Positions 3,503 to 63,838 of a stretch of DNA of 64,000 bases are shown one piece after another. This DNA is from Rhina ancylostomus (Eukaryota). The notes beneath the pieces are model-generated. The model saw only the letters and a program-made list of their open reading frames with translations. It did not search any database and had not been told where the DNA came from. The stretch spans positions 379,021 to 443,020 of the forward strand of contig JARFYF010000119.1 in NCBI GenBank assembly GCA_030265395.1, given 5' to 3'. How positions within the stretch are numbered: the stretch's first letter is position 1; the number at the start of each line of letters is the position of its first letter. Position numbers and translations under genes: made by a program.

Positions 3503-4117
3503 TTTATTATGAAAAGCAAAAATACATAGTCTTATAATTCAGCAAGCTTCAAACTGAAGGATTCGCCCTTTTTATTAATACAGATATTCTTTGGCCATGT
3601 ACTGAATATTCATTAAAACATTAGGGGGAAAAAAAACTAAGCACAATTTCCTTTCCACCTGGTAAAATATCCCATTATAAGCCAGTATAGGATTACACAA
3701 GTACAATGGAACCAACTTATGATCAATTAGTTTATATCTATAGAAATTTTCTACTGTAGTGTGAAACTATGGCTCTGATCAGTGCTGTACAACAAAAACC
3801 CTCCATATAGACCATTAACAGACCATTTTCTTGGCACCATTCTCTGTCACTTTAGAACTGCTATACATTACAGTATTAGCTCTGTGAAATAGTCTCTTCT
3901 GATCAAGGTTTTATACTGAATTGCTCATTATATAAGCAACCTTTAGATTTGATTATCTAATCTCAACTCAAGATCAATATCAGCTTTATGCAAAATGTTA
4001 ACCTAACAGGGCACCAAAGTATAATCAAGCATATTTGAAAGCATTTGAAAAGAATATAAATTTGGATCTTTCACACATTTTGAAAATCCACCACACTTGG
4101 ATATTTGTAATAAATGA
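3503..4117 (-). other. DSP: DSP 3' UTR with polyadenylation signals
   Basis: AT-rich, repeat-free sequence after the stop codon. AATAAA on the minus strand at 3571-3576 and 3503-3508. Confidence 0.6.
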
Positions 4118-7100
4118 TTAGCGTGTAATAGAAGAGGATTTAATGGTTATATGAGTACTACTAGTTAAAGTGGAAGAGCTGGCATCAAAACTTCCTCGTC
4201 TTGATCCACTTCTTGAGCTTGGACGGGAACCTGGTCGGGAATTTGGTCCAGAGAAGCCGCCTGCATTGTATGGACTATTAATTCCTTTAGTTGAAAATGA
4301 TGTCGCTTCTAACATCCGTAGGCCAGTTTTATCCTCAACCATTGAACGATCCACTGCCTCTTTATATGAAATCTTCAATTTTGTTTTGGGACAGGTGATA
4401 CATTTTGAGTAACTGCTGCTATCCTGCAGTTTCTGAGCTGTTTTGGCATTAATCAAGCCTCTCCTTACTGCTTCATCAATGGTGATTCGCCCTGTAATAT
4501 TTGGCACAACAAGACCACCTGTAGCACTCTGGTACTCAAGGAAGCGTTGCCCAGCTTCATATGGCAGCCAACTCTCTTGCATTGCCTCTGCTGCAGAGAG
4601 TCTTTTCTTGTTCTTCACATCATCAAAACCAACATAAGCTTTCTGTGCTGGTTTTAATCGCTTTCCCATCTCTTCATCAATGATACATTGATATATAGCA
4701 TCTTGAATGGATAGCTTCTGACCAGTTCCAGGATTTATGATACCTCCTGTACAGGCCTGGGCTTCCAGTAGCCTCTGCCCTGTAATTGCATCAACAACAT
4801 TGCGACGCATGGCTTCAGAAATTGTTATTTTTTCCATTGTTTCAATGTCAAAGATGGCTGCAATGGGAGTAGGTTCCTCCAAAGAATCAAAAGTGTTTTT
4901 TAAACTTGGTGATAGAACTGGACTACTGTTCATTACAGTGCTCACTTTAGGTGCACTAAGATTAACCTTATCAGCGAACAAATCCACAAACTGTGAAAGT
5001 GTCAGAGTTCCAGCCCGATAGTCCTCGAAACTCTTCTTATCAATTATGCCTTTCTGTAACGATTCTTCAATGTCATACTGATTCCCAGTTTTTCTGTCAA
5101 CAACCACTGTTTTTGTGCTCCCATCTGATCCTTTAATTGTTATTTCTTCCCACTCTGCCTCCTGTTCAGAAAGTTCAAGGAAAGTCTCATAATCTATCAG
5201 GTCTTTGTGATATGCCTCACGTACTGTCATTTCTCGCTCTGTTTCAGGATCCACAATAACCACTCTACGCTTTCTCACTGCAGATGACCTGGAAGTTGTA
5301 GGCTCCTTTTTCTTTTCTCTTAGAGGCAACAAACAAAGGCCTGTGACTTTATCAGTAATACACCGATCTTTTAACTGAAGATAGGTCAAATTTTCTTCTG
5401 TGTTGGGATCAAAGAAGCCTTTGGTGTCATCACTTGGATCCACCAAAATTTCATTCAGTTCTTCATCGAAGTAATTACGCTTGTAAGCAACATCAACTGG
5501 CAAGCGATGGCTGTTCATTGGATCAATAATTCCACCAGTGGCAATTTGGGCTTCCAACAAGCGAATGCCATGATTGTGTTCAATCAAGCCTTTTTTCATT
5601 GCTTGAAACAATGAGATGGTTTTCTCAGTTTCAGGATCTTTGTAACCAGTAACAGCCCTTTCTGCTGAAAGAAGTTTAGTTTTGAACTCCACACCTATAA
5701 GTCTTTTTGCAACAGCTTCCTCAACAGTCAGCCTTTGGTTATTGATTGGATCAATTATATGACCTGTGGCTGCCTGGGCTTCTAGTAGCTCAAGAGCTGT
5801 GCCTTGTCTAATTAAGCCCTTCTTCATGGCTTGGTAGATTGGCAGCTTTTCCCGAGTGGCTTCAACAAACACTCCTGCAATACTGCTGTCACCTTGCAGA
5901 TAGCCCTTATACCGGTCAGTGACATCATCTATTGTAAGCAGTCCACAGTTAAGACCGTCTACTGTTGTTTGATCTATAATNNNNNNNNNNACAAGATTGT
6001 GTAGTGGAACAGATGTTCTGATTCCTGGTAATGTTATTTCTGATTTTTGCACAGGCAACAGTAATAAATCTGTTCCAGGATCTGTTCTGCAGTTTAATTT
6101 TAGCTGCTGATAGGAAACTTTGGAATTTGTGTTTGGATCAACAAAGATTTTTGATTCATCAAAAGGAGAGGTGAGTTTTTGATATATTTCTGCATCAATC
6201 AGCCCATGTTTATATGCAAGCTCCTTTGGTAAATACACACTGTTGAAAGGATCAATTATTCCACCTGCTGCAATCTGTGCCTCTAACAAGCGAAGACCCG
6301 TCTCTTTGTCAACAATATTTTTCCTAATTGCTTCATACAGTGAGATGATTTTTCCTGTGAATGGGTCTTTAAACCCGGTTGCAGCCTTCTCTGCCACCAA
6401 CAGTTTGTCTCTGTCTTTACGGTCCACAAGGCCTGTTGCAATAGCTTCATCCACAGTCACCCTTTTGTTTCTATGTGGATCAATGATGAATCCAGTAGCT
6501 GCCTGTGCTTCTAAAAGTGGTAACGCTGCATTAGGAGAAAGAATATTCTTTTCTGTTGCTTCTGACATTGAGAGTTTTTCTCCAGTTGACTGGGAGTAGA
6601 CTCCAGCTATATTCTCCAACCCATGAAGATTCAAATTAATGTCATTTGAAACATCCATCACTGTTTTTTCTCCTCTTAGCAGTTTATCTAAAGTTGATTT
6701 ATCAATTAGCTGGCAATCATACAACTGGTTTGCTGTAACTTTTTTACGGATTCCATCAAACAGTAGTTTTGCAGAATCGACCACAACCATATCACCTGTT
6801 TGAGTCTGCTTGTTGAATGTTGGCGGTGTCTGGCTGAGCCTTTCAATTTCTAATTTTGTTTTAGCTTGGAGTGCTTCCAGCTCCATCCTCTTTGCTCTTT
6901 CACTTTCCTCTAGTTTCCGTCTATATCTTTCTTCAGTCATTCTCAGTTCAGTTTGCAATCTATCTAGTTCAGCTTTCAAACGCTCAAACTCACTACTTGA
7001 TTTTCCTTTTTCTAACTGTTGCACTTCTGCCTGACTCTTCCAGTAGCTTACATCAGTTCTGACTATATCGATTTCATCCTGAAGTCTCTGCTTCATGCGG

Positions 7101-7261
7101 GATTCAGCTTCAAGAAGTGCCTTTACTCTACTTAGTTCATCTTCATAACGCTGAAGCCTTGCCTTATCCTGTTCCAACAGTTTGATATTCAGCAGCAGAG
7201 ATTCTTTTTCTTGCATTATGTCTTTATGAGCAGATTGTGTCTGCTTAATCATATCAGTTGC
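4118..7261 (-). CDS. DSP: DSP exon 24 (end of rod, plakin repeat domains A/B/C, GSR tail)
   Basis: Acceptor TTTTAG|GCA at 7261 and stop at 4118. Repeated [13 protein letters not shown] motifs, linker [12 protein letters not shown], tail GSRRGSF. The 10-N gap at 5981-5990 preserves the frame. Confidence 0.97.
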
Positions 7262-10200
7262 CTAAAATGTTAAGATAGAACATAATCATGTTTTCACATT
7301 TCAAAATATTAACTTTTGGCCTACAAAATGAAGATACTTAAAATTGTGTTTTTTTTAAAATCAGATTGGTTTATATATTTGATTATAATTTAGTAATTAT
7401 TATTTAAACAAATCTTTTGAGTTCAAGCAACTATTCACTTAATTTAGTATCTTAGTTACTGCTTGTTATCAATATCAAAATTATTTCTGTTAGTTATCCA
7501 TTTATGATTACACAACAAAAAACCATTAAATTTAGTACACAGCAATATATAACTTCTTCCTTGGAGGGACTGTTGGGCATTTTCAAAGATTAAAACAAAA
7601 ATCTAGAAAAATTGAGTTAAAGTGTCTCAAGATTTCTCCTGTGGAATCAAAAGATTCTACATTGTTATCTCCTTTGTTACAAGGAAGATTAGCTTTCAAT
7701 GAAATCTCCCTTCAACAGGGCCATTTGCAAGTTTATATTACTGTCCATCAAGTGTTTGCTATTTCATGTATCTCACACAAAACTGTATCCTTCACCTAGT
7801 CATTTAAATGCAATTAAAAAATTGTTCCACAAGTGATTCCAGTGATCAAATTCTTCCTTGTAGGATGAACAAGTTAGCAGCAATTCTTCAAGTTTCCACA
7901 TTTGCCATGGAACTTATCCACTACATATTGAAAACTTATAATTTCCTGATGTGTACAGGCAGCGGGCAAAGCTTCTCAGCATTAGAATGCTGTTGCAAAA
8001 CATCTTTTAATTGGGTGTGTGCTTAAATAAGAATTAACATATCTTCATTGAAGATACAGGGGCTTTTTTTGGAAGTAGTACAACTTGATAATGTCCAAAC
8101 AGAGATTAAGTTTGGACAAGTATATTTTATGGAAATCCAAGAAATATGATTAGTTACATGGAAACTGGATAGAAAAAGAGATTGCACATGTTACTAATGA
8201 AAAAAGGTAACACAAGATATATTGCTTTTAAACTGCTTACGGCAAGTATGACATTGATTCTGTAACTTTACCCTTGTTTGGTTTATTAAACAACACTTGT
8301 CATTTGTTTTCCTTTCACCTTGCAGTAGAAAAAACTTATGCCAGCGTACAATAATAACGTAGCAGTGAAGGATACGAACTATAGTTGTACTCATCCTTGA
8401 ACATGGCAGGAGCTGGCTAGATGACATAATTAAGTGACAAATGAAGGATGCAATTATATCACATCAGTTTCCCCTTCATTGACATCACATCTTATGTCAT
8501 CTTTCAGGTGAAAATATACGGTCTGTTTGCAATGAAGTACAACAGTTTTTTTAAAAAATAATCAAGGTAGCAAATGGCAAGTATGTCTTAGTGGAAAAGG
8601 CAAAGCACTAATTTCTGACAAAGGTGTTGTACTGTTCATGAATAATTTGGATTCATTTTTCAGATTCCTTTTTATCAGAAAGGAGTCAATAATGGAACAA
8701 ACCGCCAGAGGAAGTGGTAAATGTGGGTACACGTACAATGTTTAAAAGACATTTGCACAGGTTCGTGGATAGGAAAGGTTTAGAGGCATATGGGCCAAAC
8801 ATAGGTAAACAGAACTAGCCCCGATAGACACTTTGGTTGGCATGGACAAATTGGGTCCAAGGGCCTGTTTCTGTGCTAACTCTATGACAACAAACAGTTG
8901 AAATCTGATATTTATATTATGTTTACATGATTAGAGCTCTGTCACAAAATCAGTCACCAGGTCAAAAAGTTTTCAGTTTGTATTCCTACAGAATGTTAGA
9001 CTGCAGCACTCACTAAATAGCAACAAAGGTTCCTAATCTACTGCTAGATTTGGTAGTAGATGATAGACTGTGAAGGTAAGAGTTGAAAATTCTTGTGAAA
9101 AGTCTCAGCTGCTGTGCTACTATGATACCATGAGATACAAACTAGTTTCCCCTTCTCTTCACACAGATTTGTTGGTTTCTTTCTGAAGGACCTCAAAGCA
9201 CTGTTGGAATTTGAGTATTCCCTGAGCATTTGAAAGGATTCATCCAGTCAGGTTTTCCCCAACAGCTGGCATTTGAGATAAAAGCCTGATGACCCAATCA
9301 TCAAAATGTGGTTAGAAGTCCAGGTTCTTAGTCTCACTGATATAATTAAACATGGTGTATGGGATTGCTGANNNNNNNNNNNNNNNNNNNNNNNNNNNNN
9401 NNNNNNNNNNNNNNNNNNNNNNNNNNNNNNNNNNNNNNNNNNNNNNNNNNNNNNNNNNNNNNNNNNNNNNNNNNNNNNNNNNNNNNNNNNNNNNNGATAA
9501 GAACAAAAGATGAGATCCACTCTGATATGTACCGAAATACATACAAATGACAAAAATAGCATAACTGATCTGTGCCCATCAATGTGACCTTCTGCTACTT
9601 GTTTTCCCCTGCATTACAATAGTCACAGCACTTTCGAAGTACCTAATCAGCCATCAATCAATTCAGATTGTATTTTCAACACAAGAATAGAAAGAGCTGG
9701 CCAAACTGAACTGTGAGCCTACTCCATTATTCAGCAAGCTCATGGCCAATCTTCTCAGAGCAATTATCCAAGACAACTCCCATTTCCTTTCGGGATCATA
9801 GATCTGCAATCTGAGTCTGGGGTGCGTTCAACATCTCAGTATCCATGGGCCAAGAATTTCAAATAGTCATTAACTTCTGCGTGAAGAAATTTCTTCTTCA
9901 AAGTTTAAGGTGTTGTCTAGATTCATTCAAGTTGAAATTTATTTGGGAACACATGTGCATTTGATTTGACATATCCTACCTATGAATTTAAATGAAAGTT
10001 TATTTAATATTAAATTGATTATGGCAGTTTCATTAAGTTCACAACATATATCAACTAAGAAAAAGCAAAGGAAGCTAAATCATTTTAAGGAGTTACCAAC
10101 AGATTAGATCAAAGCATCTAGTAATGAATGGTAATGAACAATTAAACAACTAATGGGAAGAGGCAGATCCATAAACATCCATATCCATAATGATGGCAGG

Positions 10201-13200: not shown

Positions 13201-16200
13201 CTTCTAGAATATTAGGCCAAATCACTTCATAAAAGTGAGTTTTAGGGTTTTGTAAATATAAAAGGCCAAGTCTCCAGTTCAACAGCCGCAAGTAATAACA
13301 AATTAAGTACATTAACTAAATAACAGTAAGACACCTTGCCAACACTGCTCCATCTATATTAAAGCTCCTTGAAATTGGTTTTCTTTATTGTCTGGTTGAA
13401 TAAATTGTCTCATTGACAATCAGATAACTAAAGAGATACCTCAAGACTTTTTTTGAAGCTATTTAGGATTCACAGGACCCAAAACTCAGCTTGCCTCTAG
13501 AAAGTTCCTTGCCTTTCCATCAATCACTTTGAGGGAGCTTGATGTTGAGCTCTTCAATAAGGGCAAAAACATACCTGGTACTAAGGGGATTACAAACTGT
13601 GGCTGTGATTTGCTGAAGGCTTCTCTCAATTGCCTTAACATCAGTAGAAACCACAGATACAATGTACAAATGTCTAGTTAGTCAGTTTCTCCCACCAAAA
13701 ATACAGATTAGGTAATTCCTGTTTTCATTCTGTCACATGAGAAAAGCAAATACAAAAATGATTTTGCGCCTTACTGAGGAATGTTACAGGACAAATGACA
13801 TTAAGTCACAGGCTTAAAACATCTTATGATGCAGGATATGATTAAGAATTAGTTCTATAAATATAGAACAGAGGAAGTGGTTACTGGGTAAAATTTTGTA
13901 TCGAATTCCACTTTAATCTATTTTTCCAGAAGTTCCAATGAACCTCTAAGTTACAATGAGAATTCAGAAAAGTTTGATTGATTTTCAAATTACTTCTAAT
14001 TTTTGATGTTGATTGAATCACAAACCACTATGAAGTAATCAATTTGTAACAGTAATTGTTTTAAATGAATTTTTTAAAAGTGGAAAATATTCATTAATCA
14101 TGGGAATAAGTCACAGGAATGTTTGCAAGGGTGCCCTTATTGGCTGATACAATTTCAATGAAAGTTCTACAGAATGATAGCCCTCTTATCCAATTGCCAC
14201 TAGGGTTACTTTGGAAGATTAGGGAATCCTACAGAAATTCTATCTGAATTTGCTTTCACATTTCCTGAAAGCTATGGATATCTGAAATGATGAAGTACTA
14301 TACAACATTAGCATTTACCATTTATGTTTCTGAACAGTAAAAAAATACACATGATAAAACATTAAAACTTGCATGTACCTCCAGAGCCTGCTTTTGGAAT
14401 GATTCAACTTCCAGTTTCAATTTTTCCCTCTCATTCTTTAACTCATTAATTAGCCCTTGAAGGTCAGTTGTTCTTTTGTTAGTTAGTTCAAGCTGCAGCC
14501 TCAGCTCAGAGATAGTTTGCGACTTATCACCCTCAGCTTCATTTTGGTATCTCCGGAAATCATCAAATTCTGTCTTCAAATTTCTTAATTCTTCTTCCAG
14601 CTTCAGTCGTTCTTTTGTGAGATTTTCCACAATAGAACGCAGTCTCTCTATTTCACTTATGCTTTCATTCAAAGCCTTGCTTTTCTCTTCAATGGTTTTC
14701 TGCAAGTACTCATTTCTCTGATGAGCCTGTCTCACGTTCTCTTGCTCATGAATCAACTGGCGACGCAGCGTTTCTACCTCAGCGTACAATCTATTCAACT
14801 CCTCTGTGCTAATAGCCTTCTCTTTACGTTGTTGGTCCAAAGCATTCCGTTGCTCGGAGAGATCATTCTCAGCCTTCTTCTTCAAGATTGAGATTTCTTC
14901 AATCTGATGGGTGAGCTGTGTAATTGAACTTGTATGTTCCCTGCACTTCTGTTCAAAGCGTTTAACCTCCTCTTCAGCACTTCTTCTCTTTGAAGTTTCT
15001 TCATTGATATTCCTTCTCAGCTGTATTAGTTCTTCATCTACCTTATATTTTGCATTGTTTGCCTCCCTTATATTATTCTGTAGACGTGCAATTTCTTTTT
15101 CTAAACCAGCCTTTTCTCTAGATACTCTTTCATGTTCTACCTTTATAACTGTAAACTCTTGCTCTGTGGTTTTAATTTTGTTAAGTTTTTCTGCGTTTTC
15201 CTTCTGAAAATCTGTTTGCATTTGTTTCAATTTATTATTCTCATTATCCAAATGTTTTCGCTTATTTATTTCTTCCTCCAGCAAGATTTTTAGCCTTTCA
15301 ATCTCCTTTGTTTTGTCTTGGATAGCCTTTGAGGTATCCTCCTGAAATGATTTAAACCTCATAGTTTCCTCAGTTTTAAATTTGGTGAGTGTTTCTATTT
15401 CTAGTTCAAGTTCCCTCCTCTTTCTGGATTCCTCAGCACTAGCTGATTTCTGCTGCAAAATATCCTTTTCTGCCCTTTTCCTACTCATTTCAATTTCTCT
15501 GGCAGAACTTCTTAATCGATTTATTTCATCCATGAGATTCTTTTTCTCTTTCAAAGCTTTTTCCAACTGAATATTCAAAGCTGCAACATCGTCTTCCTTC
15601 TTAATAGTTAACTTTTCAACTGTGGTTTCCCTTATGTGAACCTCTTTTTCAATCTGTGACTTCAACATCCTGTTTTCCTGCTCAAACTTGTTCCTAAGCT
15701 GAACTAGTTCACTTTCAAATTGTTGCCTTTTTAAAGAGTCATTCTGCAATACACTCCTAAGCCTTTCTATCTCTTTTTCCTTGTCTTTGATTGATTTCTC
15801 AAGCTCCAATTTCAGCCAGCGAGCTTCATCAAGCTCCTTCTGTTTCATCCGGAAAGCACTGTCATGTTCATCTTTTTGCTGATCACGTTGGTTTTCAGCT
15901 AATTTTCTCTTTCTCTTTTCTTCTTCAATTTCAAATGTCAGTCTTGTTATCTTCTCATTGATTTCTTTTATTTGGATAAGTTGTGCATCCAGACTGTATT
16001 TCGTGGCATCGCGGTCTTTTTCAGCATTTCTCTTCTGCTCCTCTAGGAAGACAATCTTTTTCCGGAAGTCTGTATACTCAGTCTGAACCTGGCTTAAATG
16101 TTGATCAAGATACTTCTTCTGCTGTATACTATCAGCATTCTCATCTTGGGCATTTTTAAGTGCCTCTTCCAAAAGTTCTATTTTTGTATTTTTTATCTGT

Positions 16201-19200
16201 ATAATTAAAATTAGATGGAAGTGGCCTGTGATATTTTGGTTTGTAACCTACATTTCTTAAATACAAACATTAAGTCATCAATTGAAAAGTTGATTACAAT
16301 TTTAGTCATGGTTATAATTTAGAGCAAATAAGGAATGTCCATATTACAAGTGCACACAGTTTTAAGAATGAACCATGCTATATTACAAAAGTAAATGTAT
16401 AATTTTACTTTCTAATTGAGAATATCCAACTACAGCAATAACATTTTCTGGAAGAGTTAAAATACGTATATTAAAGCTTCAAAGAACAAAAATATATTCA
16501 CCTTTACTTCTTCCATGCTCTTCAATATCTCACTTAAGTACTTGTAGTAGTCACCAGATCTTGTAAGAAGTTCTATATAACGAGACTGCAGATCTGCAGA
16601 CTGAAGAAAAAATGTAAAAGTTTTGATGATAATCTGGAAGCCCTTGTCATCTTATTACTGCAACTAGAGCTCAGATTTCAAATTTAGTGAATTGCTTATT
16701 TATTATAACTCTTTTCCCAACTTACCTACAATAATCCCAGCAAAGTTATTCCGTGCCAGAGGTCCAAAGTCCAAGTAAGGCATGTTTACTTATTTCCTGA
16801 ACCTATTAACTCCCTTGTTGGGAATGGCTCCTGACATCAGGATTATATACGACAATAACAAAGTGCCTTAACACTCTTTTTGCTGAAAGCAGAAAATGAC
16901 TCATAACGGGTGACACCTCAGTCTCCGAGGTTGCTGGTGGAGATCAACCATCTCCATCTCAAGCATCAACCATCTCAAAATCTTCTAGCACTGGGGATGC
17001 ATAAAGAAACAGGAGAGGCACAAAGAGAGCAGAGTAAAAAGGATTTAAATTTTTTTTAAAAAGGAAAATAAGTAAGTTGGATTTCCCCAAAAGGCTTGTG
17101 AATGTTGGGATGGCAGACATGATAGTGCAGTGGTTAGCGTGATACTTTTACAGATAGATATCTCATTCATAAAATTGTATAACAGATAGGTTGGGTGTGT
17201 CTGCAAGGAACGCTAGTAGAACATGTTCAAAATGGGAATATCAGCAGTCATGCTTCTTATAAACCATCTCCTGGCAATGTTCGAACAGGCATCACAGACA
17301 CAAGAACAAGATTGGGGGTCCAGTCAATCCCTCAGCTTAGGTTTGTGTAATACCTTTGCGGAACAGCAAATGTTTAGATCCCAGAGGTCGACATTAACTA
17401 CAGCATTGCTGATACCAGTGAAAGTTAATGCAAACAAAAGTTATGCTACAAATGCAAAAGAAAAGCAGAAGACCCAGAAAACAAAATCAGTGAAAATGGG
17501 GGGGAAAATGCTGGAAATTTGAAATGAAAACAGAAAATGCTGGAAACACTCAGCAGGTCAGGCAACATCTGTGGAAGGAGAAACAGTTAATAATAACAAA
17601 TGCTGCAAAACACCATGATGCTGGAGGAACTCTGCAGGCCAGGCAGCATCCATGGAGAAAAGTAGGTGGTCAATGATTTGGGTCAGGACCCTTCTTCAGG
17701 ACTGAAGATAGAAAAAGGGGAAGCCCAATATACNNNNNNNNNNNNNNNNNNNNNNNNNNNNNNNNNNNNNNNNNNNNNNNNNNNNNNNNNNNNNNNNNNN
17801 NNNNNNNNNNNNNNNNNNNNNNNNNNNNNNNNNNNNNNNNNNNNNNNNNNNNNNNNNNNNNNNNNNNNNNNNNNNNNNNNNNNNNNNNNNNNNNNNNNNN
17901 NNNNNNNNNNNNCCTCTTTTGTCCATCTATCACTGCTCTGTTTTTCTCTCCTGTATATTGGGCTTCCCTTTTTCCTATCTTCAGTCCTGAAGAAGGGTCC
18001 TGACCTGAAGCATTGACCACCTGCTTTTCTCCATGGATGCTTCCTGGTCTGCTGAGTTCCTCCAGCATCATCATGTTTTTCATCTAGATTCCAGCATCTA
18101 CAGTCCTTTGTTTCTCTAATAAAGAATGCTGCTTGACCTGCTGAGTGCTTTCAGCACTTTCTGCCAATGACAATGGTTCTAGCTTTACAAATTGATGAGG
18201 TGATTTTGGGGACTTGAGCAAAACTATGAATCAGCCATGTTTCCACACTGCCTGATTTTCTTCTTTGCTGTGGAAGTGAAACTTCAGTGGTGTCTAACCC
18301 TAGCCAAATGAAAGTAACCTCTCAACATTTTTAATGGAACGGAATGAAGAATACTTCCTACTTTATTCCAGTAAGTTATTAACAGATCCAGCTTTCTCTC
18401 TACTTATATTTAATAATAATCTCAGTAGAGCACACAGAGGAAATTTAGGTGGGAAAATCTTATGGCTATTGAAACTTGAGCATCAAACCCCATGCCAGCC
18501 AAATGATCCAAAGGTCTAAATAATGAGTTCTGCCTTTGTAATTCTTCAGTAAAGCATCCTACTCTAAAAATTTATAATCCAGAAAACCTTTTTAAACACA
18601 ATAAATAAAATCATCAATTTGATCATCTTTGAAATACGGTATACGATCAGAAGTACACCTTAGTAATGCAACTTAGAAAACTACCAGAGGCTCTAAACTT
18701 GCAAGGATGGAAATGAGGGAGAATAACCAGGAGAACCTGGGATGTCCAATGGGATAGGTAAATGTGCAGCTGATAAAAATTAATACAGAAAAGTTTGATC
18801 TGATACATTCTGGTGTGAAGAATAAGGAGAGGCAATGGGTATAATTCTAAATGATATGCAAGAACAGAGAACCCTGGGCACATGTACTCATTGACGTTTA
18901 GGGAAGGGTGCCTGTTATAAATGCACACAGAATGTTGGGCTTGAGAGAGAGGATATGGAAACAACAAAGTTATACTGAACTTTCACAAAATAATGACTCA
19001 GTCCCCAGAATATTAAGGTAACCTCACTTGTAGAGGATGAGGCAGTCTTGGAGAAGATGCAGAAAAGATTTCCTGAAATGGTTCTCCGAGGAGCTGGAGA
19101 ATATGGAAGGAAAGCAGAGGGGAAATGTAATGGAGGTCAAAATAATATGGGATCCAGGCAGAGTAGAAGCTACTTCCATTGATGGAAGGGTCAAGAATCA

Positions 19201-22200
19201 GATTAATGATGACTAGGAAAAGAACCAAAGACAATGTGGAGATCACCTTTAGANNNNNNNNNNNNNNNNNNNNNNNNNNNNNNNNNNNNNNNNNNNNNNN
19301 NNNNNNNNNNNNNNNNNNNNNNNNNNNNNNNNNNNNNNNNNNNNNNNNNNNNNAATGTGGAGATCACCTTTAGACAGCAAAGGTGGTTAGCACTTGATGC
19401 TTTGTCTGATGGAATGCAAGGTGTAGCTTCCATCATGATTTCAAAAGAAAACTGCAACAGAACTTTAAGGAAAGAAAATTACAGAACTACAGAAGAACTA
19501 AGGACAGGGGAAATGAAACAAATGACTATGTTCTTATGGAGAATCAGTATGAACTCAAAGGGTGGAAAGGCCTCCAAACCTGTTGTTCCCCTTCTTTCAT
19601 ACCATGATAGATTTAAATAAACTCGTTTTGGTCAATGTTATTATAGCAAACAGAGAACACCTTCTCAAGGGAATTAAGACTTCAGTTACTTATTTTGCAA
19701 GCATTTTTTTTTGCATTTAACAAGACTGGTGAATTGATGGTTGCTTTAGCAAAAGCACACAAAGTTTCACATACCTCATGAAGAATTGTAGTGGAAATTG
19801 ATTGTGCCACTTGCCTCTTGACCGGAATACTGAGCAGCGTTTCCAGGCCAGCACTATACGATGCTAACTGTAGCTCGTAATCCTGTTCAATAAATAGAGT
19901 TGTGTATTTGACTCATTTCACAATACTGTGCATAAGCAGCAATATTCACTTCTTAAGACTGCATCAAAGTTTCCTACCTTTACAGATGTTGCACAGCGGT
20001 CTGCATGTTTTTGGTACTCTTCAACATCGCCTCGTTTATTCTTTATTTCTGAATGCAAGTTCTAATCAACAATAAAGCAAATATGTTAACAGGAAGGAGT
20101 TCTTTTCAACAAAATCATTCCATCTCAATAGATCATGGAATGACAAATAATCAAAGGATCATACATTTGTTGTTTGATATGAATGGCCCTAAGCTTCCTT
20201 GAGGTTAATGGCACAGAATTTCCTGCCAGTGGGTCAAACACAGTGTGATGCCATCATATGGGGCAGCCAGAAACAGGTTTCAACCACAAAACAGCTAAAA
20301 AATACTTTGACCACTGAACAAGCCACACCTTGTATTTGGCTTGCTTTTGAAAAAAAAAATCAATAAATCAAAAGAGTACTGAAATGCACTCTTCAAGTGT
20401 GAATTCATTTGACTAATCCTCCAAATTAAAATGTAGGTTGCCCAACACTTGCCTTGCCCCTGGCTCCACAGAGTGTCAGGAACAGATTCCACAGGGCAAG
20501 TGCTGAGGAACCACCACAAGTTCACACTCTACTGCTGAACACCATGAATTCCACATTGGACTGCCTTTGTGTAATGGTTAATGAAACATGGTCAACATGT
20601 TTAGAACATCAGCATTTGTAATGAATCCCAAACTTGATGGCACTGCTTCACTGGTAACAGACAACCAAACTTTTAAAAAAATCCATTTATTCCTATTGTT
20701 TACTGTCCCTTCACCAATCAAAATGTACAAATAGAATGCACTGACCATACATAGTTGATAAAAAACAAACTAAAGTATATTTTAGTAAATTTAAATTTAT
20801 ATGTATACTAGGTGAATTACTGGCTGTAATTGAAGAAGAAGTTGAAATTTTATATAGATGAATCTCAAAGTAATTTACTAACTGGAATCTGATTCAGGAA
20901 TTCAGACTTAAGGTATAAAAATGAATTGTGCAATTTTTTTTTTAAGAAAGGACTACACATTGCAACTGTTATTCCCTTTAAAGATAGGAAAAATTAAATT
21001 AATTCATGAATCATTACCCTATAGGTCACCTCAAGCACCACATCCAACACTCCCTAGGTCTCCCACATCCAATATGCCATCTAGATAAATACATGAATAG
21101 CAGAGGTTTAGAGGACTATGGGCCAAATGGGATTAGCTCGCTGGGCAAGCTAGTCAGCATGGATGAGTTGGGCTGAAGGGTCTGTTTTCATGTTGTATGA
21201 CTATGAAGCAGTTAAATGGAAAGAGCTGCATTTCCCTTCAGAATCTGGCCCATTATAAATACATGACTATGAAGCAGTTAAATGGAAAGAGCTGCCAGTA
21301 TTTCCCTTCAGAATCTGGCCTATTATAAATACATGACCATTACTGGATTGAGCAAGGTTTTGATGGGGTCAAAATTTGCAGCAAGGCTCGCTTATGGCAT
21401 GTCATTCCCCACTTTTCCAATGCCAGTTGTTGGGTTGAATATGTGACTGGCTGCTGCTTATACCTTTGTTGTGACAGACACAGGAAGGGAAAGTGAGACT
21501 GTTGCAATTTGGAGGAATTACCACCAGTTCCACATGTAATATCATGTGGATCCCAATTCTGCCACCTTAGGACATGCAATAAAAGAATTATTTTTGATGA
21601 AAGTTGAGAGTTTAAACATGGAAACTTGTCTTTCTTGGGCAATTTTCCATGCAGTTGTTCATTAGCTAGATCTACCAGCTGAGCTATTAACAGGAGCAAA
21701 CCTTTTTCCGCTTTTCTCAGTCAATACCTCAGGTCATTACATCCATATACTCAAAAGATATGCTTGGAAAGTCCTCCAAAAGGTGACAGGACGTTTCCAC
21801 CCATATTTAGCACCTCTCAAATCAGTTAAGAGGAAACATCACTTGCCCTCTGTAGCCAATGTGCTTTTCAATTGAGGGACAGCCAGAAGAAGCCTCACAT
21901 TGCCCCAGGATCACCACTGACATTGCAAATTTAGCAAGTATGAAGTCTTATTCAATCGGAATTTAATTGCCAAACATTGGGCTGAATGGCAGCCCTGGCC
22001 CCACTGCCCGGACACAAAATCTATAGGCCCTGCCCACCTGCACCTTTTCTGGACAAGCTGTCCCTTTGCACCAGTAGGCACCCAGTGATTTGGGGCAGGC
22101 TCCAAGAGGTCACTAGGTCTCTGATCATGTAGCCTGAAGTCCTGCATGTTCCTCCCAGGAACACCCAAACAGCCTTACACAGCTTTTAAAAGGCTTTAAA

Positions 22201-25200
22201 AACCATTCTTAAATGTCTGATAGGACATTATAAAACTAATCAAATTTAAATATTTTTTAAAAATCCAACACAAATTTCAGCAAAAACATATTAAGTTGGT
22301 AATAAATAATTAAAAATATTAATGCAAACAAAGCAAAAGAATACCTTCTCCTTAGGAAGAAGCACCTTCTTCCAATGCCAGTGGCTCCATTAAGCTGAGG
22401 GGTCATGTGCAAAGTGCATTTTTCCATCTCTTCAGCACATCACTGCTCCAATGCTAATCGCAAATGGCAAGCCCTGTAATGGAGTGGGTAGTCAGATGCA
22501 ACTGCATCCGACTTCCAGCTCACTTTGAACTTCTGCCTTTCATTATTTTTTAAATACAAGAGAAGGATGCCATTCAGCCCACTGAGTCTATAGCCAGAGC
22601 ACTCCCATCAGTCCCGTTCTCCTATTCCCCCTACAACCTATACTTTCTCATATTCCCATCAATTCCCTATTGGCTTTCCTGCCACCCATCTACAGTAGAG
22701 GTAATTTACAATGGCCCAATGGCCAATTAACCCTCCAGCACATCCTTGGGATGCAGGAGAATACCAGAGCACCCAGAGGATATCCATGTGGTCACAGGGA
22801 CAATATGCAACCTCCAAGGTCAGGATCGAACCTGTGCTGCTGGAGCTCTGTAGAAGCAGCACTAACTGCTGCACCACTGTGCCACCCACATCGAAGTACA
22901 AGATATGCTGAGTCCCCAACAACTGATAGTGGAATAGTTTCAGAATCAATGGCCATTGGTCTGCCCAACTTGGTTCATAACTTTTTAAAAAATTATAATT
23001 ATTCTCCTTTCCTTCTTCCCCATTTCTTATCACTCTCTCTCTTAAATACACCTTTCTCCCCCACTCTCATAGTTTCTGTACCCACTTTAAATCTAACATT
23101 TATTTTCTGGTTTAGATAATGCACGTTCTTTCATCTTTTGGGTTGAGAAGTCAGGCTAAATATTACCTTGCTGACATTTGTCACAGACTCTGGGAGAGAA
23201 TGCCATGCTGTAACAGATGGGCAATGATGTAGGTTACCACTCAAAAGCTTTCTAAGAGTCAGCAGTGCTTAGCATAATGAACAGCCAAAGTTCCTTTGTG
23301 ACAATCTCAAAATCCTAATACTCAAAATCCCAATTTCCTTCCGGAACACAAGGAATTATGGGTGAACCTGAATGTCAAATGGTCATTCTCCTGACCTTGG
23401 TTGTGTTGCTCAGACTCATTTTATAAAATGTGTGTTTGTTTTAGCTATTTATCCTATGGGTCATGAGATTAATCACATCCACAGAACAAAATAAATTTGT
23501 CCTTTACTATATTTTTTCTGGAAATGTGTAACACTGCTCATATCTGTCATATTTCCCTACAACATAGGAGACCAGTTAGCCTATCAAGTCAATGCTGACT
23601 CATCTATCCCATTCCCCACTTGTTACCATTCTCATCTGTTCTCTTGTATAAGCCCATTAACAACCCTCTAATTCTCCCACCAGCCATCTACATCAGGGGC
23701 AATTTACAGTACCAGTGAACCTAACTGCCAGCATATCTTTGGGACATGGGTGGAAAATGGAATACTCAGGAGGAAATCCACATGGTCACCTAATTAAAAA
23801 TACCTTCCATGTTTCATGTGAGAGCAAAACATGCAATCTAAATCCATATGTTTTGCTAGATTGAGCTATCTGGATTTAACATTCTAAAACTGGTTATAAC
23901 TGATGTACAATGGTTATATGTTCACTGGTTGTAAATATAGCACATACCACAAAAAATACCAACCTTCTGTTCATTCAGCTGCTGTAAAAGGAAATTTGTA
24001 TCCTCACACCTGTTGATTTGCAACCCATCCTGTTTGCGTTTTGTTACATCAATCCACTTACTAAGCTTCTGAAACAAATCTCCATAGTCTCTGAGCTGCT
24101 TACGTTCTTTATCTAAATCACAATACCTGCATGACACAAACAAAACACAAACATTTAATTCCTTGAGAGTAAATGTTCTGGGCTTTAGAAAGAAACAGTT
24201 ACTAGAATACAAGTGTAAGAGAAGTTACTTGAAGGAGGAAGTCATCTTTACAATGGATAATCTGTAGTGTTTACCTTCCCCAAACTGCCCTCTGATAACA
24301 ACTACTATTGATGGTCAGTACTGACCATTATCTGGAATTGCCCAAGTTACAACCTTTGCAACTGATGAATGGATGGCCTGAGCTAGGCACTAGATATTAG
24401 ACCTCTTCAACACCTTCCACTTTCAGGCTGTATACTCCTAGGACAACTGGGATGTAGAATTTGATTTGAAATTCATAAAAGTTGGAACTTTCTAGACTCA
24501 ATATCGAATTCTTCAACTTCAGGTAACTCACTTTCTGTCTGTATCTCTACTGGCCATTTCTGCTGGAGGTCATCCACCTGTGCTATTGGCTTGTTGTTTG
24601 TTCTCCATTCTCTATTAGCATAGCCTGACCTGCTGGGCATTTCTCACAACCCCACTATTTGCTGCACGTTACACTTCTTTGTATTATCAGCCTTTTACTG
24701 CCCCATCACCAATCTGACTGGAGGACAACTTTTCACCAGGGCAACCCTAGCATCACCCTCAATATTAAGTTGCAGATGAGGTAAAACAAGGGAATATCTA
24801 ACTTGTTTTCTTTCTTTCCCAGTTCTGACAAAGGGTCTTTANNNNNNNNNNNNNNNNNNNNNNNNNNNNNNNNNNNNNNNNNNNNNNNNNNNNNNNNNNN
24901 NNNNNNNNNNNNNNNNNNNNNNNNNNNNNNNNNNNNNNNNNTAACCCGAAAAATTAACTGTTTCTCTTTCCACAACACGCTGCCTGTTTCCAGTATTTTC
25001 TGTTTTTATTACAGAATTTTATTTGTGTATTTCAGAGTATTTTAGGTACTTGTCACGTTCATCGATTAGACTGATGAGAAATGGCCATACAATACTTTTC
25101 TACTCAGAACAAGACACCAATAGAGATGGATGCAATACCTTGTCTCAACTGCACTGTTAAAATAAAAGTAGTTTTCTGAACTGCATAGGTTTTACTAATT

Positions 25201-28200
25201 CTTATTCTCAAGCTCTATGAGATGATGGTCTTGAGCTTCTAGTCAGCAATAGAGAAGAAAAGGAGACAAATAAGATGACGATCAAAAGGCTGTGCACATG
25301 TGCAAAATTGACCCTGGAGTAGCCAAAGCTAAACAGTTCAGTGTCAGAGGCCAAGGTATCTGAGGTTGAGACCTTCTGTCAGGTTCCAGACCACCCCCAA
25401 AGAAATGCAAACTGAAATGCATAAAGGTCCCAGGATCTTGGTCAGATTAAATAAAATCCACTAAGCTCAACAGAGCCTCATTGATCTGCACACTAATTGC
25501 AAGTGCAACAAACAATCTGCTGGAGGAACCAGCAGGTCGAGCAGTATCTGTGAGAGGAAAGGAATTGTCAAGTCCTGATGCAGGGTTTCAACCCAAAACA
25601 TCAACAATTCCTTTTCCTCCCTCAGATGCTGCTCAACCCGCTGAGTTCCTCCAGCAGATTGTGTGTTGCTCCAGATTCCAGCATCTGCAGTCTCTTGTGT
25701 CTCCAATTGCATATGGTTTGCTTCTGTTGACATTCTATGCCAGCACTCACATTCAAATCTCAAAGCCTGAATTTTCCAGCCACAATCAAACAAAGACAAC
25801 TGGCTATCCAGGAGAATTTGGCAGTTACAGTACATGTGCATTTCAAGATAGAATTCAGTTTCTGACTGAGCCGAACTGGTTAACACTTTAAAAGGTTATG
25901 CAAAACCACACCTGCTATCAATTTCTTTGTAGATCCTCTGCCATCGGTCTATGAGCTGTGTTACTTTCTCATTGTACTTTGCAAGATCTATATCACACTT
26001 GTAGAAAGATGGCATTATGTCATCATTGATTCGGAGAGCTTCCTGCATACTTTGCTGCATCAACGTCAGCAAGTTCTTCTTTTGATCCAGTTCCATCTTC
26101 ATTTTCTAAGAGGAAAGAGCAAAACAAAAATAAGACTTTCAAAGCATAGTGAAATCACTGAAAGGCTTCCAGGTTATGGAGGCTCTTTGTACGAGTATGG
26201 ACACAGGCACATCCAACTCTACTTAACTATGAGGGAATGGAGAGGACAGGAGGTGTGCAGCCACCCAGGGAGCGTGGAGGAAATGCCCTATTTTATGAGT
26301 TCCCATTTTCTGAAAACCTCATCTGAACTGATATCTCAAAGTATGCTTGTTTGAGGGAAGAAAGGGGAAAGAAATCAGGAGTAGCTCACTTTTTAAAAAA
26401 AAAAGGCCTACAGCATCTGAAGGAGTTTATCCTAAAAACCAAAAGGAACCTTATAAATAGGAGAAACAAAGGACAACAGATGCTGGAATCTAGATGAAAA
26501 ACATGATGATGCTGGAGGAACTCAGCAGGTCAGGCAGCACCTGTGGAGAAAAGCAGACAGTTAATATTTCGGGTCAGGAGAAGGGTCCTGACCCAAAACG
26601 TTGACCACCTGTTTTTCTCCATGGATACTGCCTGGTCTGCTGACTTCCTTACAAACAGGAGCTGTTTTCCCAAGGCCAAATAGAGAATTTACTAACTTGT
26701 TCAGTAGTTCAAAAAACATTAATGTTGTTTGAATCACAAGCCAAGGAAATAAAAATGTTGGCCAGGTTTAATGCACAGATAGCTATTGGATGCAAGTGGC
26801 TATTTCAAACTTGGCCATAACCAGAATCAAACTATTCACTGAGGGACACTTTGTCAGAAAGGCACCCATATCCATAAAACTAGAACCCAGCACTCAAACT
26901 GGGTCTTTTTAAAAAAGAGGGAAGGTGGAACTGTTATATTGTCCTATGAGGAAATAAAATATCAAAATTATCTCCGAAAGTAATAATTGCTTCCTTCAAT
27001 TTTTAATCAGAGATCCCTTCTGTCTCACTTTCCTTTTAAAGTTCAGAAATTCTACCTTCATCACTAAGCAGTTTAAAGCCAAGCATCACTTACACACAAA
27101 AAGTAATCACTTTGCACTGGAGAAAATGCAGAGTGTACCGAAATGAACTGTTGAAAGAGTCAGAATAAGCCAGCTTTTACGACCCGGGTGGCAATCTGGT
27201 GTAATCGTCTGCACATCTCCCTTGGAAATCACTGGGATTGGTGGATTACCTGCTCTGCCAAATTATCACCTACCTAAATAAATTAATAATTGTCCCCAAA
27301 CAGATCTGAAAGTAATACCGTCTGTTCTGTTTACCTGCAGATTGTCTCTGTAAGATTCTATTTTCTCCAAACTCATCGGGACAGTCTCCTCTTCTGTTAG
27401 TCTTGCTTCATAAACTTTTATCAGATCTTCCACTTCGAGAATATTTTGAAAGAGTAATCTCAATGCTTTCATTCTAAGGAAAATTAAATTTAATTAATAC
27501 CTTAATGCAAAAAAAATCTGATCTCACAAAATTTTGGAATAGCAAATTCTACAATGGGCAATAATCGCTACTGATTAAACTTCAAAACCATTTCAAAACT
27601 CCTCTTTTCCTTAAATTAAAATGAAGCCATGAGAATACAATTTTTATTTAGTTATAGTGGATCTATTTCTTCCAGTTTTAAATTTTGATGTCCTCACTTA
27701 TAGCAGGATTGCCTACACAAGTTCATTGCTTATTGCAAACCCCACCTGCTGGATTTCCACAAATTGCTTGAAAAGTTTCCTAATATTTCAGCTACTTTAT
27801 TCCCCCTCAAATTGCCATTTTTATGTTAGGAAGCAAAGTTTTGGAGAAGTTCAAATCTATGGAGGGTGCAAGGTATGAGGCTGAACAGATGGTAAACCCA
27901 TCTAAATGATGGGCTTGCAGCCTGGAGTAAAGCAGAGTATTGAGCTGGATGCATTCATCATCCAGCCCAATACTTTCAAAAACCACCACTGGACTCTGTA
28001 CCAAGTCCAGTATCTGAGATGGAGATCGGCACCCTGGTGTCTGATTTGCCGTGCATCTCTAACTTGAGCACCACACAGGGTGGATAGGTGGTGATTCCAT
28101 CCAGAAAAGCATAACCTGGCCCATTCAGTCATAATACAATCTGTTGGATGCATAAACTTGAAATACACATCCTTTGCTACCTATTTTGTTGAATTGCTTA

Positions 28201-31200
28201 AAATACTTTTTTGGATTTGCAATAACTTTCATTTTTTTAATATCAGGTCATGTGAAAAAGTCACTCTCTGAAGAGGTTTGTTTTTACATTAAATGAGTAT
28301 ATAAATGGGCTGGAGTGGATAGGTGAGTGAGGGTATCATATTCAATCCAGGTTTGGGGGAAGCCAATTAGAAATTGCAAATTTTAATGTAATTGAAACTC
28401 CAGTTATTTTAGCTAGGTGTTTAGATAACCAAGAACACAAGAAAATAGGACCAGGAGTAGGCCACCAGACCCCTCAAGCCTGCCCTGCCATTCAATACGA
28501 TTATGGCTGATCTACACTGGCCTCAACTCCTTTCCTGCGCCATTTCTGCATAGCCTTCCATCTTTCATGTATTTATTCAACTCCACCTTAAAGACATCTA
28601 ACGACTTAGTCTCCACCACCCTCTAGGGGAGAGAATTCCAAAGATTCACCACCCTCAGAGATTTCTATGCACCTCAATTTTAAATGACCAGCCCTTATTT
28701 TGAAGCGATGTCCCCTTGTTTGTGACTCTCCCACTAGTAAAAACATCTCAACATCTACCTTCTCAAGCCACATTAAGATCTTAATTTTTTTTGAATAAGA
28801 TCACCCCTCATTCTTCTAAACTCCAAGCAAATCAGACCCAAATCGTCTAGCCTCTCTTAACAGGCCAACACTCCCTGGTGAATCTCCTTTGGATGGCCTC
28901 CAATGCTACTATATCTTTTTTTTTAAGGTTAGGGGACCAAAACTGCAATATTCCAGGTGTGGCCTCACCAGCACCCTGTACAACTGTAACAAAACTTCCC
29001 TATTCTTAAACAGCAACCCCTTCACAACAAAGGCAAATGTCGTTTGCCGTCTTAACTAGTTTTTGAAGTTGCCTGTTAACTTTTTGTGATTCGTGCACTA
29101 GAATTTCACTGTGTCAAAGGAGATCCCATCTTGAGAAAGGGAAAAGATGACAGAAACCATGCAGCATTTCAAGTTAGTCGAATAATTCCCATTCCATTGT
29201 GACAAAACCGAGACAATGTAGTTTGACGCGATGTGTCCCAGTCCCATGCCATAAGGAAATTTGAGGAATGAAAATCTAAAGAGAGAAAGATTTAAAACTG
29301 AAGTACAAATGTCAGCAAACAAACTTGCATACTGCTCAGAGGACTCGCTCTTTAATACAAACAACAGAAGAATATTAAGTGACACACTAAAACCTCTTCT
29401 AAAGCTGCAGCAGTCTGCAAGGTGGCTTGTCCCTTTAGGCTTCAGTTGCAAAACGAAATGTCAGTTGGAGGTCAGCATCACCTCAGGAGGATAATTTTGT
29501 CACTATTTTACAACTCTATCCTTCCACTATGTAAAATTTTGTTCTCTATCAATAAAATGTGAAATATGACAGATTAACAGAATTACTTTCCATTCATTTA
29601 ATGGCCACATTAACAAGTGAGAAACACTGAAGGAACTTTGTTAATATCAAGAAAAATGGAGCGCAACTGTGATACACAGCTGTTTAAATGAGCTGCCTCT
29701 TAAGGGAAAACCCTTAAGGACTCTTTCTTGAGAAGTACTGTAAACAGGCAACTGCAGGGAAACTATGAATTACAAAAATCTGATGTCAATCAGGAAAAGT
29801 TGCAATGGATTGAAACTCAGATTAAATCTATCATGGAACATCAACACTCATCACAAGATTTGTATAAAGTAATTCCATGTATTTTTAACATCTATGCTAC
29901 TGCAAAGTACGCTGCTACATATATTACATCCACTGCAGTTCCAGTTTACATTATTTGTATCTATAACATGGTTATTAACTTCCTCTCACCTCTCTAAATA
30001 GGCTGAAGAAAAGTCACTGCCATTCCTCAATCTTTGGCTTATTCGGCTAAATTCTGTTTCAAAGTAAGTCTTCTGATTACTAGATGCATTTGGTGATTGA
30101 TACCACCTATTCTGAAGGCTGATAAAGTCGTCGTCAATTGTATTCAACTGATCTTGCAAAGACTGTCAAGGAGAAACATATGAAACAAATTAGAAATGGA
30201 ATAAAATTTACATTTCAGATTTTAAAGATGTTTCAAGAACATAAGATACACTTCAAGTAAAATCTAGAACTCAAAATCATGCACTGCTTTTACAGACACT
30301 AATCAATAAGTAATTTGGAAATAATTATTTTTGGTACTAATGCCCAATTGTATTCCAAGCAAACTCATCTCCAAACTCCTAGATCTCGGACTCAACACCT
30401 CCCTTTACAACTGGATCCTTGATTTACTGAGCGAAAGACTGCAATCAGTAAAGATACGCAGCAACATCTCTGCCATAATTATCCTCAACATTGGTGCCTC
30501 ACAAGGCTGCATCCTCAGCACCTTACTACACTCTCTATGCGCTCGTGACTGTGTGGCCAATTTCTGCTCGAACTCCATCTGCAAGTTTTCAGATGACACC
30601 ACCAGTGGAGTGAATCTCAAACAATGATCAGTTGTGAGTACAGGAAGGAGGTAGAGAGGCTACTAGCATGGTGTCACAACGACGACCTTTCCCTCCGTGT
30701 CAGCAAAACAAAGGAGCTGGTCATTGACTTCAGGAAGCAGAGTGGACGTACGGTCCCCTGTCTGGATCAATGGTGCTGAGGTGGAGGTGGCTGGGAGCTT
30801 CAAGTTCCTAGGTGTGAATATCAACAACAATTTCTCCTGGTCCAGCCACATGGACATTATGGCCAAGAAAGCACACCAATGCCTCCACTGCCTCAGAAAT
30901 CTAAGGAAATTCATCATTTACCCAATGACTCTTACCAATTTTTACCAATGCACCACAGAAAGCATCTAATCCAGATGAATCACAACTTGGTGTGGCAACT
31001 GTTCTGCCCAAGACCACAAGAAATTGCAGAGTTGTGAACAAATCATAGTGCATCACACAAACCAGCCTCCCCTCCACTGACTCCACCTACATTCCCCACT
31101 GCCTCAGGAAAGCAGCCGACATAACCAAGGACACCCTGGTCATTCTTTCTTCTCCCCTCTCCTGTCGGGCAGATGATACAAAAGATTGAGATCACGTACC

Positions 31201-63194: not shown

Positions 63195-63838
63195 TTTTAG
63201 GCCCTGTATCCAAGGAAGGATATGCTGGNNNNNNNNNNNNNNNNNNNNNNNNNNNNNNNNNNNNNNNNNNNNNNNNNNNNNNNNNNNNNNNNNNNNNNNN
63301 NNNNNNNNNNNNNNNNNNNNNNNNNNNNGTATCCAAGGAAGGATATGCTGGCCCTGGAGAGGGTCCAGAGGAGGTTTACAAGAATGATCCCCGGAATGAA
63401 AGGCTTAACATACGAGCACTGTTTGATGTCTCTGGATTTTTACTCAATAGAGTTCAGAAGGATGAGGGGGATCTCATTGAAATCTACTAAAAGGCCTGGA
63501 AATGGTGGATGTGGAGAGGATGTTTCCATTAGTAGGAGAGTCCAGGATCCGAGGGCACAGCCTCAGAATAAAGGGATTCCCCATTAAAATTGAGATGAGG
63601 AAGAATTTCTTCAGCCAGGTGGTGGTAAATCTGTGGAATTCTTGCCACAGAGGGCTGTGGAGGCCAAGTCATTCGGTGTATTTAAAGCAGAGATTGATAG
63701 GTTCTTGACTGGCAAGGGCATTAAGGGTTACAGGAAGAAGACAGGAGAATGGGGCTGAAAAAAATATCATAATTGAGTGGTAAGCAGACTCAATGGGCTG
63801 AATGGCCTAATTCTGCTCCTATATCTTAGGGTCTAATA
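63195..63838 (+). mobile_element. CR1 LINE 3' fragment
   Basis: [50 protein letters not shown], tail gggctgaatggcctaattctgctcct. Confidence 0.9.

Follow-up and report, generated by a model that had tools for sequence, protein, structure and literature searches.

Inverted repeats in and around the desmoplakin gene of Rhina ancylostomus: probable relics of Penelope-like retrotransposons with a minimal type I hammerhead ribozyme

A family of short repeats with inverted arms is scattered through 64 kb of Rhina ancylostomus DNA (the whole stretch that was analysed, hereafter the window), and the reconstructed family sequence of these repeats matches a minimal type I hammerhead ribozyme. The repeats themselves are probably 5'-truncated, inverted-end pLTR insertions of Penelope-like retrotransposons (PLEs) that have since decayed in place. 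The pairing of this ribozyme with PLEs has already been published (Cervera and de la Pena 2014, PMC4209133). In the literature on hammerheads or Penelope in sharks, skates and Chondrichthyes we found the repeat family itself undescribed, Repbase, Dfam and most subscription papers lying outside the scope of that search. This very abundant repeat is likely to extend the range of PLE-borne minimal hammerheads (min-HHRs) to a vertebrate lineage absent from the searched supplement of that paper.

Results and discussion

A repeat family in and around desmoplakin

The window is CpG-poor vertebrate DNA (CpG observed/expected 0.22). Desmoplakin lies on its - strand, where the ORF 4121-5980 matches the solved desmoplakin C-terminal domains (E 9e-155) and the exon 42395-42607 (-) matches the plakin domain (E 1e-16). 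The element at 17.6-18.1 kb sits between these two matches, upstream of the rod-coding ORF 14322-16247, and its inverted arms at 17.7/18.0 kb are within a desmoplakin intron. An earlier note on this DNA had called the repeats intronic, which is true of this locus; the element at 2.3 kb lies downstream of the stop codon.

We built an nhmmer profile from nine arms and searched the window, with the reversed window as control. At E<0.01 the search gave 22 arm matches, of which 13 were not among the seeds; 24 are listed at E<=1, and the reversed window gave none. The 22 matches group into 13 elements in 64 kb, or about one per 5 kb; the earlier note was right that the family is repeated, and its density of one per 6-7 kb is slightly too low. 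The two cores which it had placed at the inner ends of inverted arms, 17982-18018 (+) and 17668-17704 (-), are there letter for letter, and each of its seven further places carries a related core. Head-to-head pairs make up nine of the 13 elements, and in eight of these pairs each arm reaches E<0.01; all 13 are at most about 510 bp long and devoid of coding remnants. They are listed here with any candidate target-site duplication (TSD); elements comprising both arms are given without strand.

2337-2505: older pair downstream of the desmoplakin stop codon, left arm weak (E 0.72); TSD 11/13, p 0.02
17507-17592 (-): long arm of an older subfamily C element, into which the younger element is inserted (nhmmer, arm alignment)
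17607-18117: younger element, subfamily A, consisting of short inverted arm, unsequenced middle and long arm (arm alignment, nhmmer; three paralogous contigs among those listed start at 17607/17608)
18123-18165 (+): short arm of the same older subfamily C element that hosts the 17.6-18.1 kb insertion (nhmmer, arm alignment)
24820-25010 (+): single arm of subfamily C with its core interrupted by 100 N; stem I would be 5 bp if the flanks join (nhmmer, sequence reading)
25505-25704: subfamily B element with a 35-nt tail; its head-to-head arms meet at stem I, and core position 9 is C; TSD 7/7, p 0.07
26460-26650: subfamily A element, long arm on the - strand, arms meeting within the core; TSD 13/15, p 0.001
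33000-33107 (+): degenerate arm (nhmmer E 7.5e-8)
43091-43153 (-): very degenerate arm (nhmmer E 4.4e-5)
43920-44140: older inverted pair, subfamily C (nhmmer; no TSD found)
46565-46814: subfamily B element with a 33-nt tail; both cores have C at position 9, and the right one is locally inverted; TSD 12/14, p 0.005
56192-56551: old inverted pair at 56192-56395, together with a lone arm of subfamily B at 56451-56551 (-) (nhmmer)
57970-58299: older inverted pair, subfamily C, with a spacer of about 110 nt (nhmmer; no TSD found)

In the 17.6-18.1 kb element, which is nested inside the older pair 17507-17592 / 18123-18165, the 130-nt inverted arms are 91% complementary and flank a 179-N assembly gap (17734-17912). 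The gap occupies the middle of the element and stays unfilled by the aligned contigs from four public runs. Of 127 places, 11 differ between the two arms, the core not being spared. The interval 24820-24960 holds one core divided by a 100-N gap, and the sequences on either side of the gap overlap by 2 nt. Inner junctions are different in every arm pair, and no repetition was found within the window among the spacers and upstream flanks of the arms.

The family sequence as a minimal hammerhead

The hammerhead reading centres on three features of the younger element:

17669-17702 (-): mirror copy of the hammerhead relic, oriented like the desmoplakin pre-mRNA, with three core departures (sequence reading)
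17913-17983 (+): pyrimidine-rich family sequence upstream of the ribozyme, with deep paralogous-contig coverage, matching the 'U-rich' leader of the published consensus
17984-18017 (+): relic of a minimal type I hammerhead, with a stem I of 3 bp, CUGANGA, an additional A and stem II, while GAAA and helix III are broken; the cut is predicted to fall after 18014; sole descriptor match at <=2 departures

The descriptor was written from the published PLE consensus and scanned over both strands of the window. It found no match at <=1 core departure on either strand, so that the earlier statement that no copy has an intact core holds, and a single match at <=2, the arm at 17987 (+). A strict core pattern had two matches in the window, which is chance level, neither of them in the repeat family.

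Letters of the wider family were read from contigs of four of 19 listed public runs (four organisms), aligned to 17300-18300 at 80% likeness. The aligned contig records numbered 71,602, 67,120, 103,195 and 136,022 per run, with depth piled on the arms; the summed depth is not taken as copy number. The shares below are weighted to collapsed young copies, come only from contigs like the 17.7/18.0 kb arm and were read among the differences listed, some being uncounted in runs X3 and X9. On the + arm, A at 18010 takes 98-99% of depth, G at 18012 61-67% and the C that closes stem II at 18006 47-54%. A15.1 (98-99%) and G16.2 (61-67%) are thereby restored in all four runs, and the mirror arm agrees (17676, 99%; 17674, 56-67%; 17679, 36-48%). 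The intermediate shares, that of C11.1 (47-54%) included, coincide with CpG sites, in line with the CpG-decay reasoning of the earlier note. None of the core T positions has an alternative of >=10% in runs X1 and X2.

With the family letters inserted, the arm matches the descriptor without departure, as do 0 of 20,000 dinucleotide shuffles. Read from the window together with these letters, the subfamily A sequence has the CUGANGA, stem II, GAAA and N-U-H core, an extra base after A9, a G10.1-C11.1 pair and a palindromic 15.2-16.2. At the level of sequence, then, the family consensus matches a minimal type I hammerhead, as had been proposed, the family letters giving the exact descriptor match.

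Predicted structures depend on context. For the isolated 34-nt family core the hammerhead fold is the predicted minimum-energy structure (-6.0 kcal/mol); within the full arm the prediction does not favour it (pair probability 0 for stem I and 0.22-0.26 for stem II). The cofold-predicted dimer is not the active helix-III dimer, and the arm-arm duplex of the 17.6-18.1 kb element is predicted at -217 kcal/mol. Among 11 decayed window copies, three of the seven stem I/II pairs change on both sides, which 55 of 500 shuffles also reach; stem covariation among these copies is not significant, observed values being attained in 55-153 of 500 shuffles. An Rfam scan of the window, which covers decayed copies only, listed 16 matches at E<=10. 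None of them is a hammerhead. The best of them, to miRNA models, fall on the 25.5 kb hairpin and at 36.6 kb, and none reaches the gathering score.

Subfamilies and their cleavage triplets

The single ancestor earlier proposed, with a GUC triplet and a 5-bp stem I, gives way to about three subfamilies (A, B and C). In subfamily A (17.7/18.0 kb) the triplet is GUU, since all nine T>C places counted in X1/X2 exclude 18014, and C at position 17 has less than 10% of depth. Its stem I is of 3 bp, because the letter after it stays C (18018; next letter G in 55-60%). For subfamily C, loose contig ends at 17586 give a TTAAC consensus (1,553-2,241 contigs per run, agreement about 0.6). The 3' variants are therefore not all CpG products of one ancestor, as had been supposed, the consensus of this second subfamily itself ending in TTAAC. 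Window copies suggest that the 5' strand of subfamily C is GTT, which would be a compensatory change, though the pair counts on the 11 copies are not significant. In subfamily B (25.5, 46.6 and 56.5 kb) both decay products of a CpG occur at positions 17 and 1.1, which makes GUC plausible there, and of the subfamilies only B plausibly points to that triplet.

The subfamily B cores further have C at hammerhead position 9 in three of the three that include this position (25571-25605 +, 46630-46664 -, 46685-46735). This count includes the 46.7 kb core, in which the stem II and GAAA block is locally inverted and C9 is read through that inversion. If the subfamily came from a C9 master, it would represent either an undescribed active core variant or a PLE that went on amplifying after catalysis was lost; the latter case would count as natural evidence for the hammerhead fold as a protein-recognition signal and for cleavage being dispensable in vivo. 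We would entertain only as a speculation, and an unlikely one, that cartilaginous fishes are among the largest known min-HHR reservoirs (of the order of 10^4-10^5 copies), with one lineage spread from such a C9 master. The C9 subfamily, which rests on three copies, is the lead that could surprise a specialist.

Insertion anatomy

The ends of the elements bear on the assignment to PLEs, as exemplified by three features of the younger element:

17591-17606 (+): left candidate TSD, 14/16 identical to 18117-18132, empirical p 0.0006
18080-18116 (+): tail of about 35-38 nt, on the long arm alone (arm alignment)
18117-18132 (+): right candidate TSD, paired with 17591-17606

One arm is longer in all six pairs aligned. 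The extra tail measures 33-38 nt in the three cases that are clean and about 55 nt in the 26.5 kb element, and it is there in blurred form at 44 and 58 kb. Candidate TSDs of 13-16 bp occur at four of nine elements with p<=0.02 (14/16, 13/15, 12/14 and 11/13), two more elements have p 0.07 and three have none; these p-values are relative to 5,000 random pairs, with element ends set by eye and four candidates noticed beforehand. For the left repeat at 17.6 kb an alternative to a TSD is a deleted piece of an arm.

Two observations touch on these ends and arms. The candidate TSDs 26449-26463 and 46812-46825 share with the long arm its final 3-4 bases, an overlap that suggests priming by microhomology at the tail end. 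Downstream of the ribozyme, the arms (e.g. 25607-25626 and 58205-58227) have pyrimidine tracts followed by CAG, like splice acceptors; these may be a relic of a PLE intron, or cryptic sites in the host intron.

The PLE derivation proposed earlier is supported by this anatomy. No link to an RT or GIY-YIG domain was found within 900 nt of the arms, which makes the tie to PLEs an indirect one. Neither Pfam, applied to the 238 ORFs of >=38 aa in those intervals, nor a motif scan gave an RT/GIY-YIG match. Apart from desmoplakin domains and a single match to ALKBH8_N, Pfam gave nothing above threshold for these ORFs and five others, the rest being noise. One arm reading frame compared with longer proteins had 26 candidates and none at E<=0.01, a weak test, and no reading frame conserved across subfamilies was seen in the window arms. 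An NGYP motif at 57222, PLE-like at first sight, was reassigned to a desmoplakin exon, which we take it to be by its likeness to the human protein. Scans with the arm motif gave no hit in viral contigs and none in genome contigs; two metagenome loci were only motif matches and otherwise unrelated. The metagenome contig L002:1-1004 consists of short tandem units with the arm motif and is unrelated to the repeat family.

The earlier label of a non-autonomous family is not shown by these data, which 5'-truncated copies of an autonomous PLE fit equally. A genuinely short, SINE-like partner, transcribed as the master with the same ribozyme and mobilised by PLE enzymes in trans, is the rival that survives best, though we consider it improbable. 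It would account for the small, non-coding elements and for their very high abundance in the aligned contigs, and non-autonomous elements derived from pLTRs are already in print. However, the inner junctions differ from pair to pair, as truncation at each insertion predicts and a fixed short master does not, and PLE copies are normally truncated heavily at the 5' end.

That the family is instead a DNA transposon of the MITE or foldback kind, with terminal inverted repeats that match a hammerhead by coincidence, is to our mind very improbable. Inverted arms, small size, high copy number, absence of an ORF and the non-significant covariation among the 11 window copies are all compatible with it. 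Yet the ends are asymmetric by 33-38 nt, the junctions vary and single arms are present; the TSDs are long and variable, symmetric termini with a fixed short TSD not being seen; and the exact descriptor match arose in 0 of 20,000 shuffles.

Comparison with known systems

The features of truncated PLE insertions find ready counterparts in published work. Min-HHRs are described in the pLTRs of metazoan PLEs, namely Xena, Poseidon and Neptune of fishes, coelacanth and Xenopus, where they are inactive alone and weak as dimers, H17 is often U, and opposite-strand pairs 100-700 bp apart are reported for truncated elements (PMC4209133). GUU is a permitted hammerhead cleavage site. PLE insertions are 5'-truncated, often with an adjacent inverted copy and a tail of 30-40 bp on one end; in Poseidon two RT start sites within the RNA account for this tail, and in the single PLE that has been reconstituted cleavage depends on the protein, while insertion can do without cleavage (PMC11167929). 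Penelope has been listed for the whale shark. Further background on PLEs and hammerheads is given in PMC8557442, PMC6155905, PMC8455134 and PMC3138052.

The repeat shares with the PLE min-HHRs of PMC4209133 the lack of loop 3, the short stem I, the extra base after A9, G10.1-C11.1, the palindromic 15.2-16.2 and the U-rich leader, as well as the thousands of scattered copies, several subfamilies and opposite-strand pairs. It differs from them in a copy number seemingly above the 4,000-9,000 reported there, in a C9 subfamily and in that no ORF was seen here. Supplement file 2 of that paper includes no shark, ray or chimaera.

As in Poseidon PAc of Anolis carolinensis (Frangieh et al. 2024, PMC11167929), the ribozyme lies about 100-140 nt upstream of the insertion end, the tail of 30-40 nt is optional and the targets are AT-rich. 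Unlike PAc, whose ORF starts at stem II, the repeat has no conserved frame across subfamilies and no protein relative was found for it. With Penelope of Adineta vaga (Arkhipova et al. 2013, PMC3846280) it has in common head-to-head inverted pLTRs, a one-sided tail (31 bp there), TSDs and nested insertions. That element, in contrast, is low-copy and ORF-bearing, with TSDs of 8-10 bp as against 13-16 bp here, end microhomology included.

Like non-LTR retrozymes (Cervera and de la Pena 2020, PMC7229834; Li et al. bioRxiv 10.64898/2026.07.22.740005), which are also reported in one chondrichthyan, the repeat is non-coding, PLE-related and has a type I hammerhead. We find it hard to credit, all the same, that the elements are monomeric derivatives of such a retrozyme, that is of tandem 150-1000 nt units making circular RNA. 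The hammerhead type would suit this origin, as would the pLTR-derived retrozymes reported from one chondrichthyan genome, with a mean unit of 363 bp. The window copies, though, are arranged head-to-head and none head-to-tail, and their core is of the minimal PLE type rather than the canonical type with a 6-bp helix I. The published retrozymes are tandem direct repeats with typically canonical cores, unlike the inverted or single copies with minimal cores seen here, and the name retrozyme-like, used in the earlier note, fails on the absence of head-to-tail units from the window.

Proposed origin and decay

On the favoured reading of truncated PLE insertions, an active PLE elsewhere would have been transcribed and its GIY-YIG domain would have nicked AT-rich DNA. 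Its RT would then have started synthesis within the RNA a short way downstream of the ribozyme, at one or other of two sites separated by 33-38 nt, which would yield the long and short ends. Synthesis may have stopped early, a template switch giving the inverted second arm, and repair would have left the target-site duplication. To cut after GUU (GUC in subfamily B), the ribozyme of the source element would have needed help, either from a dimer formed through the palindromic helix III or from a PLE protein.

The desmoplakin pre-mRNA would stay uncut by the intronic copies, because their cores are broken, they have no tandem sense partner and their arms are predicted to pair into a long hairpin; the copies in this gene are most likely neutral fossils. 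The unique flanks of the 17.6-18.1 kb locus, in contigs aligned to 17300-18300, differ by about 2-10% (gaps counted) in the organisms labelled B to D. Contigs run there from the flanks into the older element, and in organism B into the tail of the younger one too. The insertions therefore probably predate the splits from these three organisms.

Least probable of all, to the point that we scarcely entertain it, is a domesticated intronic ribozyme which processes the desmoplakin pre-mRNA: the intronic position, the domesticated intronic hammerheads of amniotes and flanks, probably with the insertion too, common to related organisms would fit, but the gene-sense copy departs from the core at three positions, the descriptor at <=2 departures matches nothing in gene sense, and the 11 differences between the arms do not spare the core.

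A probable class is assigned here to a repeat with roughly one site per 5 kb of the window. The GUU, GUC and C9 subfamilies, together with many dated insertions that have tails and TSDs, would allow a comparative test of why PLEs retain a barely active ribozyme, and the origin of inverted PLE ends is testable by the same comparison.

Other features of the window

Internal direct repeats at 4494-6518 are the plectin repeats of the last desmoplakin exon. At three of the eight 100-N gaps (19254, 42754 and 63229) the flanks overlap exactly, by 21, 10 and 23 nt, which identifies these as placeholder gaps. No tRNA genes were found in the window. Another abundant repeat, seen as 3' fragments with short ORFs (734-865, 8691-8878, 21083-21202, 31291-31722, 37594-38116, 59034-59391 and 63201-63587), is presumably a LINE of the CR1/L2 type. 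A direct repeat pair, 30768-31031 / 32313-32577, has its copies 1545 bp apart, and the second holds the ALKBH8_N Pfam match (E 9e-6), which we assume to be a LINE-end signature. The hairpin 36632-36715 matches the mir-1002 model at 41.9 bits against a gathering score of 85; it is unrelated to the hammerhead repeat family and is perhaps a small palindromic repeat.
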